Positions 57,421-64,000 are shown, counted from the first letter of the stretch. The stretch is DNA of 64,000 nucleotides from Vicinamibacteria bacterium (GCA_041493035.1 JBGPYB010000004.1:1465-65464), one strand, 5' to 3'. Program-made: numbers and translations. The notes: a model not told the origin generated them from the letters alone.

Positions 57421-58901
57421 AAGAGTACTCGCCGAAAAGGCGCACCGCGCTGGTCCTCACGGGGAGTGGCACGTCGGGGGCGTATCACGCCGGGGCACTG
57501 AAGGCCCTCGACGAAAGCGGCGTCAAGATCGACCTAATCGTCGGTTCCGGCATCGGTTCGGTGGCCGCGGCCTTCGGCGCGGTGGCCGGGGGCGCGCGCC
57601 TCTATGGACGCGGTGGATTCTGGGACGGCGCCCGGTGGAGCTCTTTCTATCGGCTGCGGCCGTTTCTGCGTTCTGTGCTTGGCCTCCTCGCCGCAATCCT
57701 GGGCGTGTTCCTGGTTCCCGCGACGGTCGCGCTCGTGGTCGGCCTTCTGTCGCCGCTGCTGCTCATCGTTTGGCTCGTTTGGTCGCGGGTTCACGCGGAC
57801 TTTCCGAGTTGGGTGGGTCTCGACCCAGGGCTGCTCCCGACGGTCTACGTCGCCGCCCTCGCCATCCCCGCCTTCGCTCTCGGCCTCCTCGTCGTGGTCT
57901 TTCTGTGTCGCCTCGCCTACCGCGATCGGAAGAGGATGGGCGAGGCCTTCGAGGCGGTGCTCGACGCGCGCCGTGGCTCCGAGCGTCTCTGCCGCGCTCT
58001 CTGGGAGGTGGCTCGTGGCCCTGCGGTCAGCGCCGCGCCCCCTTCGGAAACGGAGCTCGGGAAGCGCTTTGTCGCCCTCGCCTCGGAGAACCTCGGGCAG
58101 CCGGGTTTCAGGGAGCTGATCCTTCGGACCGCGGACTTGGACACAGGCAGCTCGCTCCCCTTCGTCCTCTTGCAGGATGCTCACCGTGCCGCGTTTGCCG
58201 TGGCCCGCTCTCGCGGAGCACGCTCGCGCCTCGACGGCCTTCCGGGCGCCGTCGACCTCCGCGCCTCAGGGTACGACGTCCTTCTCTTCGACGCGGTGGT
58301 GACGGGTCTCCTGCCACCCCTGGCCGCTCCGGTGCGTAGGGTCGCCTTCCCTCGCGGTGGCCTGTACGCGGGCGAGGTTCACCGGCTCGCCGACGCGAGC
58401 GTCGTGGCGGGCTCCGGCATCTCCGAAGCCCTGGCCGCGGGCGCCGACCAGGTGATCCTGGTCTCAGGCGTTCCGCAGATCGCCGCCGCTCCTCCGCGCC
58501 GGCGTGGGCCGCGCGCCCTGGCCGACGGGATCCTCGCGACCCTCGAGCGTCAAGCGGTGGATCGCGACGTGGACGGTGCGGAACGGGTCAACCGCATGGT
58601 CGAGACGCTGGGACATCGCACGGAAGACGGCGGGCGTGCGTGGCAGGACCCGGCCACGGGACGCCTCTACCGCGACTTCGGCCTCTACGTCATCCGCCCC
58701 GAGAGGCGCGCCTTGGGTCCGCTCGAGTTCGATGGCGCGCAGGATCCGACCAGCGAGGTCCTGGAGACGCCGGCGGACCTCGTCGAGCAGGGATACCGGG
58801 ATGCGTACCGCTTGTTCGTCGAGCCTGTCGTCGGCGGCGCGCCCGAGCCGCGCCCTTCGGGTTCGCAGGCCGAGGAAGAGGGGCAACCCATCGGCCTCTG
58901 A
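57417..58901 (+). CDS. Patatin-like phospholipase domain membrane protein (atypical VGSGI nucleophile elbow)
   Basis: N-terminal LVLTGSGTSGAYHAGAL oxyanion region. IVGSGIGSVAAAFGA in place of the GxSxG elbow. Three or four TM helices mid-protein. ATG overlaps the upstream stop (ATGA). Confidence 0.55.
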   Translation: MKEYSPKRRTALVLTGSGTSGAYHAGALKALDESGVKIDLIVGSGIGSVAAAFGAVAGGARLYGRGGFWDGARWSSFYRLRPFLRSVLGLLAAILGVFLVPATVALVVGLLSPLLLIVWLVWSRVHADFPSWVGLDPGLLPTVYVAALAIPAFALGLLVVVFLCRLAYRDRKRMGEAFEAVLDARRGSERLCRALWEVARGPAVSAAPPSETELGKRFVALASENLGQPGFRELILRTADLDTGSSLPFVLLQDAHRAAFAVARSRGARSRLDGLPGAVDLRASGYDVLLFDAVVTGLLPPLAAPVRRVAFPRGGLYAGEVHRLADASVVAGSGISEALAAGADQVILVSGVPQIAAAPPRRRGPRALADGILATLERQAVDRDVDGAERVNRMVETLGHRTEDGGRAWQDPATGRLYRDFGLYVIRPERRALGPLEFDGAQDPTSEVLETPADLVEQGYRDAYRLFVEPVVGGAPEPRPSGSQAEEEGQPIGL

Positions 58902-58919
58902 GCCGCGAGGGAGCAGGCC

Positions 58920-60089
58920 ATGGTGGGGCAGGGAATCGGGACGCGGGCCGTTCACGGCGGCGGCCGGCCGAAGAGCGGGCCGCTCACGACGCCGATCGTC
59001 CAGTCCTCGCCTTTCGTCTTCGAGTCCGCCGCCGAGATGCGACGCTACCTCGAAGGGGACGACGCGCTCTATCTGTACACGCGCTACGCGAACCCGACGC
59101 TCCAAGCGCTCGAAACGGCTCTGGCCGATCTCGAGGGAGGCGAGGCGGCGCTGGTGCTCGCCTCGGGAATGGCGGCGATGACGACGGCGCTCCTGTCTCT
59201 GGTCAAGGCCGGGGACGAGATCCTGGCCAGCGCCTCGCTCTATGGTGGAACGACCCGTCTGGTGCGCGACGTCCTGCCGGGCCTCGGGGTGTCGTCGCGC
59301 CTCGTCCCCGCGGCGGACCTTCCGCGAGTGAACGAACTGGCGGGACCCGAGACACGGGTCCTGGTCTTCGAGACGCCCACGAACCCCATCGTGTCCATCG
59401 TCGACATCCAGAAGGTCGCGGCCGCAGCTCACGAGCGGGGCCTCGTCGTCGTCGTCGACAACACCTTCGCGACCCCGATGGTCCAGCGGCCGCTCTCCCT
59501 CGGGGCCGACCTTGTGATGCACAGCCTGACCAAGGCGCTGTCAGGGCACAGCGACATCATCGGCGGCGCGCTGGTCGGGTCGCGGGGCAGGATCGACGCG
59601 GCGCGGAGCATGCTCAAGGTTCTCGGCGGATGTATGGACCCCCATCCCGCCGCCCTGGCGCTGCGTGGCCTGAAGACCCTGCATCTGCGCGTCGCTCGTC
59701 ACTGCGAGAACGCCATGGCCCTGGCCTCCCATCTGGAGCGGCATCCGAAGGTCACGCGGGTGATCTATCCGGGGCTCGCGTCCCACGAAGGCCACGAGGT
59801 GGCCCGGCGCCAGATGGCGGGGTTTGGCGGCCTGGTGACGATCATCGTCGCCGGTGGGCTGGCGGCGGCCGAGCGCTTCTACGACGGCCTGAACGTGATC
59901 GCGCGAGCGGCAAGTCTGGGCGGCGTCGAGTCTCTCGTGAGCCTTCCGGTTCACACCTCCCACTACGGCTACACTGCCGAGCAGTTGGCCGCGGCGGGAA
60001 TCGACCCGGGAATGGTCCGCATCTCACTGGGGGTGGAGGACGCCGCGGACCTCATCGAGGACGTCGATCGGGCTCTGGCCGGTGTCTGA
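58920..60089 (+). CDS. Cys/Met-metabolism PLP-dependent enzyme (cystathionine gamma-synthase / methionine gamma-lyase family)
   Basis: PLP lysine in HSLTKALSGHSD, NPT motif (YANPT), 389 aa. Confidence 0.8.
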   Translation: MVGQGIGTRAVHGGGRPKSGPLTTPIVQSSPFVFESAAEMRRYLEGDDALYLYTRYANPTLQALETALADLEGGEAALVLASGMAAMTTALLSLVKAGDEILASASLYGGTTRLVRDVLPGLGVSSRLVPAADLPRVNELAGPETRVLVFETPTNPIVSIVDIQKVAAAAHERGLVVVVDNTFATPMVQRPLSLGADLVMHSLTKALSGHSDIIGGALVGSRGRIDAARSMLKVLGGCMDPHPAALALRGLKTLHLRVARHCENAMALASHLERHPKVTRVIYPGLASHEGHEVARRQMAGFGGLVTIIVAGGLAAAERFYDGLNVIARAASLGGVESLVSLPVHTSHYGYTAEQLAAAGIDPGMVRISLGVEDAADLIEDVDRALAGV

Positions 60090-60110
60090 CTCGCACGAGG
60101 GATTCTGGGC

Positions 60111-60647
60111 TTGGCTTCGAACGAGACCGTACTGACCGTCGTTCTTGTTGGCCTCGGCCTCTATTTCTCCGTCCTGCTCGTTCGAGGGCTCGTGGGCTAC
60201 ATGCGTTTCCGCCGCGTTCGCCCCACCGCGCTCATTACGTGGCCCGCTCCGCGGCCGGCGCACTTCCGCTTCCTTGTCCTCCTCGGCGTGCTGTCGGCGG
60301 CCGTCGCCGCCTTGAACGGCTTCATGCAGCGCCCCTTCCACCACGTGTTGTCACAGGGGTTGATGTCGCTCTACTTCGTCCTCGTGGTTCCCCTCTCGGC
60401 GCGAATCCAACTCGGCCTCTACCGGGACGGCGTCTGGGCCGACGCGGGTTTTCTCTCGTGGGCCGAGATCGGCCGGATGGCCTTTCGCGAAACACCCGAG
60501 ATCGTCCTGCTCCTCCTGCCCAAAGGCGGATCGGCTTCCTTTCGCCTGCCGGTTCCCGCGGCCGAGTACGGCGCGGTGCGCAAGACGCTCGAGGAGAAGG
60601 TCCGCGCCCGTGTCCTGAACGTCGAGGCGGGAATCCTCGGCCTCTGA
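60111..60647 (+). CDS. Hypothetical membrane protein
   Basis: Four predicted TM helices. No recognisable family. Confidence 0.45.
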   Translation: MASNETVLTVVLVGLGLYFSVLLVRGLVGYMRFRRVRPTALITWPAPRPAHFRFLVLLGVLSAAVAALNGFMQRPFHHVLSQGLMSLYFVLVVPLSARIQLGLYRDGVWADAGFLSWAEIGRMAFRETPEIVLLLLPKGGSASFRLPVPAAEYGAVRKTLEEKVRARVLNVEAGILGL

Positions 60648-60673
60648 GCCTTCTCCGGGAGTATCCTGTCGGC

Positions 60674-60892
60674 GTGAATGAGCCCGTGGTGACGGTCACC
60701 GTGACGCGGCGCCGAGGTCGCGAAGCCGTGGACACGGAACTGCCTGTTGGTAGCCTCGAAGAACTCTTCGAGATCTGCCGCGAGGTGGCTCCGTCGGAGA
60801 GCGTCTGGGTTTCCCTGAAGCGCGGCGGCGGCGAGGTCCGCTTGAACTTCGCGAGCTTCATCCGAACGTCTGTTTCGCCGAAGCTGCCGTAG
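60674..60892 (+). CDS. Small hypothetical protein
   Basis: 72-aa GTG-start ORF in a compact gene spacing. Weak call. Confidence 0.25.
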   Translation: MNEPVVTVTVTRRRGREAVDTELPVGSLEELFEICREVAPSESVWVSLKRGGGEVRLNFASFIRTSVSPKLP

Positions 60893-61021
60893 GACGGCAC
60901 CACAACGGAAACGGAAACCGCGGAAACACGGAGGCACGGAGAAGAACTGGAGATCGACTCACTGCCGCGAAGCCCCTTGCTCGCTGACGCCGGCTTTCCG
61001 TGTCATGGGCGGGCTCGCGCG

Positions 61022-61051
61022 TTGACAGGGTCGCGCGGGGACACCTATCAT
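61022..61051 (+). promoter_or_regulatory. Sigma70-like promoter candidate for the aspartokinase leader
   Basis: TTGACA (61022-61027), 18-nt spacer, TATCAT (61046-61051). Confidence 0.4.
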
Positions 61052-61062
61052 CCGATCGTTCA

Positions 61063-61164
61063 ATGACGATCTCGACGCAAACCCGGCGCGCTTCTTCTCG
61101 AACGTCGCTCTCCGTGTCGATGCGAACCATTACGAGCGACGACTCGGGGGACGCTCCGATCTAG
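61063..61164 (+). other. Candidate Thr/Ile/Ser-rich leader peptide ORF (33 codons)
   Basis: ATG 61063 to TAG 61162-61164 encodes MTISTQTRRASSRTSLSVSMRTITSDDSGDAPI. Ends 28 nt before the terminator-like hairpin. Confidence 0.3.
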
Positions 61165-61192
61165 GCGCGCAGCAAGCGAGATCGAAGCGAGA

Positions 61193-61224
61193 CCCCCGAG
61201 GGTGACCTCGGGGGTTTTCGTTTT
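61193..61224 (+). terminator. Intrinsic-terminator-like hairpin plus U-tract immediately upstream of the aspartokinase start (attenuator candidate)
   Basis: 9-bp GC stem CCCCCGAGG / CCTCGGGGG with GTGA tetraloop, followed by TTTTCGTTTT. Start codon is 6 nt downstream. Confidence 0.5.
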
Positions 61225-61229
61225 AGGGG

Positions 61230-63740
61230 GTGTTCTTGGCGACTTCGAAGACGCGGCCGCTTCAAGTCTGGAAGTTCGGCGGGGCCTCGGTGGCGGACGC
61301 CGCGGCCATCCGGCGCGTCGCGGGCCTGATCCGGCCGCATCGCGGGCCTGTGGTGGTCGTTGTCTCCGCCCTGTATGGCGTCACCGATGCCCTGCTGGAC
61401 GGCGCCCGGCGCTCGGCGGCGGGAGATGCGGGTGCGGGCGCGGCCGTCGCTTCGGCTTTCCTGCGCAAGCACCGCGCCGTCATCGAGGGGCTCGTCCCGC
61501 GCGGGGCCGCCCGTCGCCGGCTGCTGGCCCAAGCCGACGCCGCGGCCCGCGAGTACCGCGATCTGGCCCGGGCCGTTGCATCACTCCGCGAGGTGCCCGC
61601 GCGAGCCAGCGACATGCTCGTCTCTCGTGGCGAGCGCCTCGCCGGTGGAATCGTGGCGGCGGTCCTGACGGTGGTCGGGCGACCAGCGGTCTATGTCGAT
61701 CCGGTGGAGGTCGTCGTCACCGACGGCCACCACGGCGCCGCGTCTCCCGATATCCCGGCCACGCGTCGTAGCGCGTCCCGCGTCCTCCGTCCGCTCCTCC
61801 ACCGTGGCGTCACGCCGGTCGTTCCGGGCTTCCTGGGCGCCGGGCCTGACGGTAGCCTCACGACCCTCGGCCGCGGTGGCTCCGACCTGACGGCGACGCT
61901 CCTCGGCCGCTGCCTGGGCGCGCGCCGCGTGGTCCTCTGGAAGGACGTCCCCGGCATCCTGACCGCCGATCCGCGCACGGTTCCCGACGCGCGCCTCATC
62001 CCGCAGCTCCATCACCGCGAGGCGGCCGAGGTCGCGTACTACGGCGCCAAGGTGCTTCATCCGCGGGCGCTCATTCCCCTGGCCGGCACGCGGGTCGTTC
62101 TCGACGTCCGCTCCTTCGTCCATCCCGACCGCCCGGGGACCGAGATCTCGAGCCGCAAGACCCTCGCCAAGTACCCCGTGAAGGCCCTCGCGACCGTGGG
62201 GCATCAGGCGATCGTGACCGTAGCGGGGAAGGGAATGGTTGGCGTTCCCGGTATCGCCGCACGCACCTTCAGCGCCGTCCACGCCGAGGGACTTTCGGTC
62301 TCCACGATCTTCCAGGCGTCGTCCGAGAGCTCCATCGGCTTCACGCTGGCCGAGTCCGAGGCGCCGCGCGCGGTGGCGGCGCTCAGGAAGGCGTTCCGCG
62401 AGGAGCTGGCGGCGGGACTCATCGACAACGTGACGTCGCGCCATGGGCTCGCGGTGATGGCCGTGGTCGGCGAGGGGATGGTAGGGACACCAGGGATCGC
62501 GGGCCGGGTCTTTTCGTCCCTGGCGGGAGCGGGAGTGAACGTCATCGCCATTGCCCAGGGCTCGTCGGAGCGGAACATTTCCTTCGCCCTGACCGCCACT
62601 GGATCGGCCGAAGCGGCTCGGCGGATCCACGACGCCTTCCAGCTCTCGAAGATCGGTGGCGGCCGTGCCGACGAAGCTCCGAGGCGCGACGTCGTGCTCC
62701 TCGGCTTCGGGCGCGTGGGGCGCGCGCTGGCCGACCAGCTCGGGGCCCAGGACGGTTCGGCCGGCGTCCGCGTCGTGGGTCTCCTCGACCGCTCAGGGTA
62801 CGTCTTCGATCCGAAGGGCCTTTCGCACCGTCGTCTTCTGCGCCTCGCCAAGGGCAAGGACGAAGGGGCGCTCCTCAAGTCGCTGGGCGGGAAGCCCGCC
62901 TCCGCCGCCACGGCTCTCGCCGACATCGCGAGCCACGCCGTCTCTCGTCCTGTCCTCGTGGACGTGACCGCCGAAGAGACGGGGGACCTGCTGCGCTCGG
63001 CTCTGGGCCACGGATTCGACCTCGTCCTCGCCAACAAGAAGCCTCTCGCCGGTTCCGCCGAGAGCCATGCGCGTCTCCTCGAGACAGCCCGGGTGAAGGA
63101 GCGTCGCATCCTCTTCGAAGCGACCGTGGGCGCCGGCCTGCCGATCCTGGACACGTACCGGAAGCTCGTCGAGAGCGGTGACCGCGTCCTGCGCGTCGAA
63201 GGGTGCGTCAGCGGCACCCTCGGCTACGTTCTCTCGGCTGTCTCCGAGGGGAAGCCCTTCTCGGAAGCGGTTGGCGAGGCGGTCGACCGCGGCTATGCCG
63301 AGCCCGATCCACGCGAGGATCTCTCGGGACGGGACGTGGCCCGCAAGGGACTCATCCTGGCCCGTTTGCTGGGGTACAAGGGCGATCCGCTTCCGGCCGA
63401 AGACCTGGTGCCTCCGTCGCTACGTCGCGTTCCGCTCCCCGCCTTCATGGCGAAGCTTCCGTCCCTCGACGACGACTGGCGCCGGCGGGTCGAACGCGCC
63501 ACGGCGCGCGGCCGAGTCTTGCGCTACGTGGTGGTCGCCACTCGAGGTGGCGTGCGGGCGCACCTCGCGGCGGTGCCCGCGTCGAGCCCCGCGGCATCGC
63601 TGCGCGGAACCCGCAACCTCATCTCGTTCACCACGCGCCGCTACCGAGTCGAGCCCCTCGTCATCATGGGCCCCGGCGCGGGAGCCGAGGTCACGGCCGC
63701 GGGCATCCTGAACGACATCCAACAGCTCGCCGCGCGATAG
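61230..63740 (+). CDS. thrA: Bifunctional aspartokinase / homoserine dehydrogenase
   Basis: AK N-terminus VWKFGGASV, two ACT domains, C-terminal HSD domain (VVLLGFGRVGRALADQL ... catalytic region). 836 aa. Start GTG 61230 or TTG 61236. Confidence 0.85.
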   Translation: MFLATSKTRPLQVWKFGGASVADAAAIRRVAGLIRPHRGPVVVVVSALYGVTDALLDGARRSAAGDAGAGAAVASAFLRKHRAVIEGLVPRGAARRRLLAQADAAAREYRDLARAVASLREVPARASDMLVSRGERLAGGIVAAVLTVVGRPAVYVDPVEVVVTDGHHGAASPDIPATRRSASRVLRPLLHRGVTPVVPGFLGAGPDGSLTTLGRGGSDLTATLLGRCLGARRVVLWKDVPGILTADPRTVPDARLIPQLHHREAAEVAYYGAKVLHPRALIPLAGTRVVLDVRSFVHPDRPGTEISSRKTLAKYPVKALATVGHQAIVTVAGKGMVGVPGIAARTFSAVHAEGLSVSTIFQASSESSIGFTLAESEAPRAVAALRKAFREELAAGLIDNVTSRHGLAVMAVVGEGMVGTPGIAGRVFSSLAGAGVNVIAIAQGSSERNISFALTATGSAEAARRIHDAFQLSKIGGGRADEAPRRDVVLLGFGRVGRALADQLGAQDGSAGVRVVGLLDRSGYVFDPKGLSHRRLLRLAKGKDEGALLKSLGGKPASAATALADIASHAVSRPVLVDVTAEETGDLLRSALGHGFDLVLANKKPLAGSAESHARLLETARVKERRILFEATVGAGLPILDTYRKLVESGDRVLRVEGCVSGTLGYVLSAVSEGKPFSEAVGEAVDRGYAEPDPREDLSGRDVARKGLILARLLGYKGDPLPAEDLVPPSLRRVPLPAFMAKLPSLDDDWRRRVERATARGRVLRYVVVATRGGVRAHLAAVPASSPAASLRGTRNLISFTTRRYRVEPLVIMGPGAGAEVTAAGILNDIQQLAAR

Positions 63741-63765
63741 CGGTGCTAGACTCGGTTTGACAACG

Positions 63766-64000
63766 ATGAGCAAGGCCCAGGCCGCTAGCGTGAAGCCTTT
63801 TCTCGATCGGCTCGCCGAGGGAGTCGTGGTCTGCGACGGCGCCATGGGGACGATGCTCTACGCCCGGGGCGTTTTCGTGAACCGCTGCTTCGACGAGTTG
63901 AACCTCTCGAGTGCCAACCTCGTGCGCGCGGTCCACGAGGACTACCTCGAGGCCGGGGTCGACGTCATCGAGACGAACACCTTCGGGGCCCACCGCTACA
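63766..64000 (+). CDS. Homocysteine S-methyltransferase domain protein (MetH N-terminal-like), 3'-partial
   Basis: VCDGAMGTML ... GVDVIETNTFGA motifs of the Hcy-binding domain. Runs off the window end. Confidence 0.6.
   Translation, partial: MSKAQAASVKPFLDRLAEGVVVCDGAMGTMLYARGVFVNRCFDELNLSSANLVRAVHEDYLEAGVDVIETNTFGAHRY

Follow-up and report, generated by a model that had tools for sequence, protein, structure and literature searches.

How is thrA, the gene for a bifunctional aspartate kinase / homoserine dehydrogenase I, controlled in a bacterium of the class Vicinamibacteria (GCA_041493035.1)? The DNA analysed, a stretch of 64,000 nt (JBGPYB010000004.1:1465-65464), is called the window here, and positions are counted from its first letter. 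The gene is preceded by an intergenic stretch at 60893-61235, lying between a small conserved open reading frame (ORF) with its stop at 60892 and thrA itself. The original prediction, made from the sequence alone, saw in this stretch the layout of the enterobacterial thr leader attenuator. The present analysis supports that layout, with the likeness being one of mechanism and arrangement and without sequence homology. Judged from the sequence and its comparison with relatives, the element would be a ribosome-mediated Thr(/Ile) transcription attenuator placed before thrA, with a probability of roughly 0.78. The leader and its relatives show directly which parts are present, how they are conserved and spaced, and which alternative pairings they allow. 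The leader consists of the following features.

61022-61051, + strand: sigma-70-type promoter, with TTGACA at 61022-61027, an 18-nt spacer and TATCAT at 61046-61051.
61063-61164, + strand: leader-peptide ORF of 33 codons plus TAG (ATG at 61063, TAG at 61162-61164), encoding the peptide MTISTQTRRASSRTSLSVSMRTITSDDSGDAPI.
61067-61074, + strand: 5' strand of a long-range helix (LR), CGAUCUCG, which is part of codons 2-4 (Thr-Ile-Ser) and pairs with 61177-61184.
61127-61135, + strand: putative regulatory codons ACC AUU ACG (Thr22-Ile23-Thr24); in the peptide alignment most relatives have TTT or TTTT here.
61141-61202, + strand: antiterminator hairpin of 62 nt (predicted ON state), made of the antiterminator (AT) helix 61143-50:61193-200, a middle helix 61152-55:61186-89 and helix P2.
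61143-61150, + strand: antiterminator 5' strand CUCGGGGG, within the ORF and ending 11 nt before its stop; a copy of the terminator 3' arm.
61157-62:61179-84, + strand: helix P2, part of the antiterminator hairpin, with the stop codon inside the helix.
61177-61184, + strand: shared 3' strand CGAGAUCG, with 61157-62 (P2, ON) or 61067-74 (LR, OFF) as partners.
61189-61224, + strand: intrinsic terminator (predicted OFF state), with the stem 61189-61201:61206-61218 (a core of 9 GC-rich pairs), a loop and a U-tract.
61225-61230, + strand: Shine-Dalgarno (SD) sequence AGGGGG of thrA, read from the sequence; GGGGG stands at the equivalent place in relatives.
61236-63740, + strand: thrA (NF006959, 683.6 bits, E = 3.5e-205).

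The promoter expected upstream of the gene is present and matches 11 of 12 consensus positions. It is the sole sigma-70-like site on either strand of 58000-64000, against 0.2 expected from shuffles. Transcription is predicted to start near G61058. The leader ATG is found 11 nt past the -10 hexamer, has no SD sequence, and would follow a 5' untranslated region of ~5 nt if the predicted start is right, so the 33-codon ORF that had been proposed just past the promoter appears to be near-leaderless. Its peptide had been described as rich in Thr, Ile and Ser. This holds for the composition (6 Thr, 3 Ile, 8 Ser and 4 Arg in 33 residues), but there is no long tandem Thr/Ile run: only T22-I23-T24 form a cluster, while T2, I3, T5, T7 and T14 are dispersed. 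The clustering is weaker than in most textbook leaders.

After the ORF stop, a strong GC hairpin with a GNRA loop and a U-tract was found as announced. The arms CCCCCGAGG (61193-61201) and CCUCGGGGG (61206-61214) enclose a GUGA loop (61202-61205), and the U-tract UUUUCGUUUU occupies 61215-61224. Folded alone, the terminator (61187-61224) reached -27.5 kcal/mol with z = -5.8, and 0 of 200 shuffles were as stable. A single occurrence of the terminator pattern was counted in the 64 kb, where 0.03 would be expected. A simple terminator scanner run over 58000-64000 did not call it, probably because G-U and A-U pairs extend the stem into the U-tract. The C-run of the 5' arm begins 28 nt past the leader stop codon. 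The distance from the U-tract to the thrA start, first given as 6 nt, is 11 nt when counted to TTG 61236. This codon, and not GTG 61230, is most likely the start because an identical public protein has 834 aa, TTG and GTG alternate in relatives, and the SD lies 5 nt upstream. The SD (61225-61230) is outside the terminator stem (61189-61218). No second copy of the leader element was found elsewhere in the window, either by the leader scan described below or by a search for the terminator pattern.

The copy of the terminator 3' arm inside the ORF gives the 5' arm another partner: CUCGGGGG (61143-61150) pairs with CCCCCGAG (61193-61200) to form the AT helix. The mutually exclusive terminator/antiterminator pairing that an attenuator calls for therefore exists (61143-50:61193-200), and it is the minimum fold of the nascent transcript. 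The antiterminator hairpin folds to -34.9 kcal/mol (z = -4.9; 0 of 200 shuffles as stable), compared with -27.5 kcal/mol for the terminator. All ten loci that carry this leader have an equivalent hairpin whose predicted stability exceeds that of the terminator, though by a narrow margin in L112 (-27.7 vs -27.5). From these folds LR is a candidate anti-antiterminator, and it is part of the full-length minimum-free-energy structure. When the transcript was truncated before the terminator 3' arm, the antiterminator was the minimum at -55.2 kcal/mol and forcing LR gave -52.3 kcal/mol. In the full-length leader, LR together with the terminator was the minimum at -77.0 kcal/mol, and forcing the antiterminator gave -63.9 kcal/mol. 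The RNA is bistable and the outcome must therefore be settled kinetically, as in classical attenuators.

The effect of a ribosome was simulated with a mask of 28 nt (an assumed footprint) on nascent transcripts truncated before the terminator 3' arm. Pairing between the C-run and the G-run formed in 10/10 loci without a ribosome, in 9/10 with the A site on the run's first Thr codon, and in 0/10 with the ribosome on the stop codon.

Relatives of the leader were sought in 123 loci fetched from genome and metagenome collections and by exact-protein look-ups. Nine of them (L096, L112, L116, L122, L106, L115, L085, L052 and L108) contain leaders of the same family. These belong to Vicinamibacteria-like Acidobacteriota, and their thrA are 69-84% identical to that of the window. 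To judge by the relatives of its thrA, the window comes from the same group. The conservation of peptide and hairpin that had been named as a check is seen in all of these loci as retention of the ORF, the Thr cluster, the G-run and the terminator. In the ten leaders including the window the ORF has 27-35 codons, its ATG is placed 9-12 nt after the -10 box, and the thrA start with its GGGGG SD comes after a C5...G5 terminator hairpin with a U-tract. The promoter is likewise kept in 9/9 related leaders, with a TTGAC(A/G/C) -35 box, a spacer of 17-18 nt and a TAT-type -10 box. The consensus Thr cluster is SMRTTT (five loci), with SMRTTTT in L115, MRTIT in the window and MRMTT in L096; L052 has TATTTT, L108 has TTLTTI, and L085 has only PTM.

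The spacing of these parts is nearly constant. The Thr run is located 7-12 nt upstream of the G5 run across the ten loci, and the runs of L052 and L108 keep an equivalent distance from the G-run in otherwise dissimilar peptides. The G5 run ends 11 nt before the stop in 8/10 loci (9 or 10 nt in the other two), and the gap from the stop codon to the C5 run is 25-30 nt in all ten. The fixed distances from G-run to stop (11 nt) and from stop to C-run (25-30 nt) are the geometry such a mechanism needs. Rfam returned no match at E <= 1 in 58000-64000 (4227 families) and none at gathering score in 12 related loci, in agreement with the earlier statement that T-box, SAM and lysine riboswitch hallmarks are absent.

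The ORF also carries a coding signature. Thr codons in the aligned leaders vary synonymously (ACC, ACG, ACT), and in the 8 alignable members the block S-V/A-S-M-R-T-T-T is kept as amino acids while its codons vary (Val: GTG, GTC, GTT, GTA; Arg: CGA, CGG, CGC). Of the codon pairs that differ, 23.6% are synonymous in the ORF frame, vs 13.9% and 13.2% in the shifted frames. The distance from the ATG to the G-run in the 8 core members is 77, 80, 83 or 86 nt, meaning that all length changes are multiples of 3. The codon variation, taken with the excess in the ORF frame and the frame-preserving indels, suggests that the leader ORF is likely translated. Separately, the S-V/A-S-M-R block just before the Thr codons (61117-61135 region of the window) shows a conservation at the amino-acid level which is unusual for a leader peptide and might reflect a nascent-peptide effect on stalling.

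Other Thr/Ile leaders were sought in this clade by scanning both strands of the window and the 114 loci then fetched for a short Thr/Ile-rich ORF followed by a hairpin and a T-tract. No hits were obtained with stricter thresholds. Relaxed thresholds yielded 9 hits, every one of them upstream of thrA and on its strand, with 0 on the opposite strand; the window itself was skipped because the Thr cluster there is short. These hits are the family members L052 and L108 plus two other leader types unrelated in sequence, with MAVTITTSIITI... among the examples. Type 1 is found directly before thrA (MAVTITTSIITIDG..., MQTHPSAATTIVITTTT... and MFTPLTARITTVTTT... in L010, L016 and L113) at L010:1775-1915, L016:3809-3950 and L113:1522-1655, and in all three loci the antiterminator 5' strand overlaps the end of the ORF. 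Type 2 is found ~3.7 kb upstream of thrA, with the peptides ...PITAITKTT... in L011, MSTGGATTITTTK... in L019, ...TITPMTT... in L009 and ...TPMTMTTT... in L013. The L019 leader (205-350) heads an operon of a GHMP kinase (homoserine-kinase-like thrB), two enzymes dependent on pyridoxal phosphate (PLP) (PALP-PALP) and thrA. Its ATG is 9 nt past the -10 box, and both L019 and L013, loci with an identified promoter, are near-leaderless. Neither type had an Rfam match.

Like the window leader, the types of L010/L016/L113 and L009/L011/L013/L019 combine a short Thr/Ile ORF with an intrinsic terminator. They differ from it in the peptide, the antiterminator and the terminator, which are unrelated and have GGCCAUCAUCC or GCCGGCC stems instead of C5/G5, and their Thr/Ile runs are much longer. 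Since Thr leader control recurs in the lineage, the reading of the shorter Thr cluster in the window becomes much more secure. The thrA of L010, L015, L024 and L016 are 60-66% identical to that of the window and have a GC-rich context of acidobacterial type; the taxonomic labels of these loci ('Bifidobacteriaceae' for L010, L015 and L024, 'Cyanobacteriota' for L016) look wrong.

In the proposed mechanism the attenuator would match the transcription of thrA to how much charged tRNA-Thr is available; in this genome charged tRNA-Ile would count as well. Transcription would begin ~5 nt before the leader AUG, and a ribosome would translate the near-leaderless ORF behind RNA polymerase. When Thr is plentiful the ribosome would reach the UAG at 61162 and cover the G-run CUCGGGGG and the 5' half of P2. 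The C-run (61193-61201), 28 nt past the stop, would emerge while the ribosome is bound there and would find only 61206-61214 as a partner. The terminator hairpin and U-tract would then form, transcription would end 11 nt before thrA, and the freed strand 61177-61184 could pair with the ORF start at 61067-61074 (LR), locking the OFF fold. When Thr or Ile is scarce the ribosome would stall at Thr22-Ile23-Thr24, or at the Thr/Ile codons within positions 2-7, which overlap the LR 5' strand. The G-run would be left free to pair with the nascent C-run, giving the 62-nt antiterminator, which is predicted to be more stable than the terminator, and the polymerase would read through into thrA and the downstream homocysteine methyltransferase gene. 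Inferred parts of this scheme are where transcription starts, that the ORF is translated, the footprints of the ribosome and their timing, the activity of the terminator and any response to Thr or Ile. The role of LR, the default-ON behaviour and a specificity for Thr as opposed to general translation speed are held less firmly than the scheme as a whole.

A number of observations weigh against this reading, and covariation is among them. Helix conservation was scored over the 10 sequences, which represent ~6 independent lineages. The terminator has 96% of cells paired and hardly varies. LR has 80.6% of cells paired and one compensatory pair (UA in 4, GC in 5), and in the antiterminator helix 90% of cells are paired and one pair covaries (CG in 4, UA in 3, unpaired in 3). 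P2 is 65% paired and kept in the window's own subgroup only, and it was rejected as a family-wide feature. Covariation is thus thin, with about one compensatory event per helix, each probably a single event because the sequences are related, and the G5:C5 core is invariant. RNAalifold applied to the antiterminator segment recovered only this invariant G5:C5 helix and no compensatory pairs; MAFFT leaves the inner helices of two subgroups out of register. The antiterminator hairpin interiors fold better than shuffles in 10/10 loci, clearly so only in the window, L096 and L116. Overall the covariation is consistent with the model and does not prove it, and the argument leans mainly on three other findings: the parts keep their positions, the terminator arm has a copy inside the ORF, and the ORF carries a coding signature.

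The remaining objections concern specificity, folding and distribution. The window has three consecutive Thr/Ile codons only, and its peptide is also abundant in Ser (8) and Arg; with so short a cluster and so much Ser and Arg the amino-acid specificity is unproven. Near-leaderless translation and efficient intrinsic termination in Acidobacteriota are steps that the model assumes. Equilibrium folds of the whole leader keep the terminator under every ribosome mask. Attenuation is decided co-transcriptionally, so such folds were set aside as uninformative and those of truncated transcripts were used instead; as the terminator wins at equilibrium, the model depends on assumed co-transcriptional kinetics. 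Close relatives have also lost the switch. In L020 (91% thrA identity) and L046 (89%), ~95 nt including the Thr cluster and the G-run are missing; the promoter, the LR/P2 hairpin and the terminator are kept (L020:3903-3990, L046:290-370), with a weaker U-tract (UUUCGUGUUU), and the L020 remnant ATGACGATCTCGATCTAG encodes MTISI*. A promoter directly before thrA and no leader were found in L037, L002, L003, L005, L117/118, L119 and L120, and L121, P0008, P0009, P0010, P0011 and P0015 likewise have no leader. The deletions are a derived state because more distant members carry the full element. Together with the relatives that lack a leader they indicate that the switch is dispensable and fast-evolving.

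One elaboration of this reading and three rival explanations were weighed. The elaboration keeps the ribosome in charge and moves the decision to translation termination: the anti-SD of the terminating ribosome would clamp the G-run as an SD mimic, and SVSMR would be an arrest-enhancing nascent peptide. The G-run GGGGGA does resemble the thrA SD, and in 8/10 loci its end lies exactly 8 nt ahead of the codon that a ribosome paused at the stop has in its P site, which is the usual SD-to-start spacing; the proposal is nonetheless considered unlikely. It is decidedly unlikely that the leader senses overall translation capacity, in which case any slowing of the ribosome (Ser or Arg limitation, stress, uncoupling from the polymerase) would leave the antiterminator in place. 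Such a sensor would fit the naked transcript, which defaults to the antiterminator in 10/10 loci, the 8 Ser and 4 Arg against 6 Thr of the window peptide, and L085 with its single Thr at the key position. Yet only Thr forms runs and is enriched in all ten peptides (4-7 per 27-35 residues), while Ser falls to 2-4 in six of the ten. Thr runs also recur at the same distance from the G-run in the unrelated peptides of L052 and L108, and the other leader types of the clade are plain Thr/Ile runs before thr genes.

Two further explanations dispense with translation. The terminator could be constitutive and partly leaky, setting the thrA level or insulating the gene from upstream transcription, with the ORF a by-product of GC-rich sequence. 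A 33-codon open frame is not rare at 65% GC (a rough estimate is ~0.4 per frame), equilibrium folds always include the terminator, and L020 and L046 keep the promoter and terminator without a Thr run or G-run. What makes this very improbable is that the distances from start to -10, stop to G-run and stop to C-run are fixed in 10 loci, that the SVSMRTTT block varies synonymously and indels preserve the frame, and that the internal copy of the terminator 3' arm, conserved in 10/10 loci, would have no role. A translation-independent switch, be it a riboswitch or a leader bound by a protein or tRNA that chooses between the antiterminator and LR plus terminator, would leave the ORF idle. In its favour, the ORF start ACGAUCUCGAU, being one helix strand, is conserved at the nucleotide level; the two folds of the bistable RNA are close in energy until the 3' arm is made (-55.2 vs -52.3), and L001 and L048 have the same terminator and G-run copy without a Thr ORF. 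However, no Rfam family matches, apart from its helices the antiterminator interior shows no conserved core, and its register changes from one subgroup to another, unlike a ligand pocket, and the coding signature and stop-codon spacing would be unexplained without a ribosome. This possibility is regarded as extremely improbable, and the ribosome-mediated Thr(/Ile) attenuator is the preferred reading.

Some variants in the relatives fall outside the family as defined here. The leader at L001:3760-3960 (same sequence in L048) is ~190 nt long and has the same C5/G5 terminator without a Thr-rich ORF. Upstream it has a G-run copy CUCGGGGGG within a CGGGGGGC/GCCCCCCG hairpin, and its sole ATG ORF, MAATESTSGAAYRGPRG, extends into the terminator stem. 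This leader could be a variant that works independently of translation or is wired in another way. In L053 (2790-2985) a direct tandem duplication of ~87 nt (GCACTTGGGGGTCTGGGGGCGAAGGCGCGCAGCGCTGGTAAGCCCCCAGTGCGGCGGTCCGGGCCGTGCCCGGACCGCATAGC) is found immediately upstream of thrA and contains G5/C5 runs.

Upstream of the promoter one more conserved feature was detected.

60996-61008, + strand: TTCCGTGTCATGG, a conserved motif that is unique in the window and lies 13 nt upstream of the -35 box.

The motif occurs at the same spacing in L020, L046, L085, L106 and L122, and variants of it are present in L096, L112, L115, L116 and L001. In L002, L003 and L005, which have a promoter and no leader, its reverse complement lies ~18 nt from the -35 box. 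The motif may bind a transcription factor or be a UP-like site; the attenuator model works without it, and a transcription-factor site here may add a second layer of thrA control. The three close CGGAAAC copies reported further upstream are present, but they are at 60906-60912, 60912-60918 and 60921-60927 (within 22 nt), just past the stop codon of the upstream ORF, and not at 60907-60945. CGGAAAC occurs 10 times in the whole window against 10.3 expected by chance, and the repeats are not present in the closest relative, L020. On both grounds they were dropped from the element, and the triplet is probably an incidental slippage repeat.

The neighbouring genes belong in part to amino acid metabolism. 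A homocysteine S-methyltransferase-type gene (63765-64000 of the window) starts 24 nt past the thrA stop with no terminator between them, and in relatives it is fused to an MTHFR domain. Because the gap after thrA is short and has no terminator, the Thr leader probably also controls this methionine-pathway gene. Upstream, a PLP enzyme of Cys/Met metabolism is encoded at 58920-60089. It is followed by genes for a predicted membrane protein of 178 aa (60111-60647) and a protein of 71 aa (60677-60892), neither with a Pfam or NCBIfam match. The pair of 178-aa and 71-aa genes is also found immediately upstream of thrA in L020, L037, L046, L057, L076, L116 and L119-L121.

Among known systems, the thrL attenuator of Escherichia coli (Thr_leader, RF00506) controls the same enzyme, aspartokinase I / homoserine dehydrogenase I. 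Its layout of a promoter, a short Thr/Ile ORF, alternative hairpins and a U-tract just before thrA is shared by the window. ThrL has 21 residues with a long Thr/Ile run, whereas the window peptide has 33 residues with a T-I-T cluster (TTT/TTTT in relatives). There is no sequence or covariance-model similarity to thrL in the window (no Rfam hit at E <= 1), and the host is from another phylum, Acidobacteriota (class Vicinamibacteria). The window ORF is near-leaderless and lacks an SD, and the antiterminator 5' strand lies inside it, 11 nt before the stop. In thrL, efficient translation of the leader leads to termination and stalling at Thr codons leads to read-through (PMC4132733). An untranslated transcript of the window is predicted to default to read-through, in contrast to super-attenuation in thrL.

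The closest design is the ilvBNC attenuator of Corynebacterium glutamicum, which has a leaderless ORF with a terminator, an antiterminator and an anti-antiterminator. A three-hairpin model has been described for it, in which the beginning of the leaderless ORF takes part in the anti-antiterminator (PMC11857589). By analogy, LR (61067-74:61177-84) would correspond to the ilvBNC hairpin H1 and could likewise block leaderless initiation. In both leaders the antiterminator and terminator overlap, permitting low-energy switching. The two differ in pathway and signal (branched-chain amino acids in ilvBNC) and in phylum, and show no sequence similarity. LR spans ~100 nt and is not a local hairpin, and ilvBNC was tested experimentally while the window is known from its sequence alone. 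The mycobacterial polycysteine leaderless ORFs resemble the window in that a sensory short ORF heads an amino-acid operon and its stalling remodels the downstream RNA, as proposed here. Their target is translation, where a ribosome-binding site becomes unmasked (bioRxiv 10.1101/834739). The output in the window is instead an intrinsic terminator with a U-tract, whose stem excludes the thrA SD.

Most documented cases of amino-acid operons under leader-peptide attenuation come from Proteobacteria, Actinobacteria and a few Firmicutes. Full-text literature searches found no thr leader described in Acidobacteria, with the limit that the cross-phylum survey of 2010 (Lopatovskaya et al.) was not covered and an earlier prediction is possible. 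Almost no predicted acidobacterial attenuator had an assigned function (Naville and Gautheret, PMC2965389). The mechanism proposed here is a known one and brings no surprise; the sequence family is a candidate new RNA family. The leader ORFs and the terminator are absent from the annotation and from Rfam, and a new family model could be started from the ten sequences as aligned here. For this uncultured soil lineage the analysis provides a concrete regulatory model of thrA. At least three unrelated Thr-leader families, apparently near-leaderless, precede thr genes in Vicinamibacteria, and the natural series of full switch, deleted sensor and no leader could serve the study of how such switches originate and decay.

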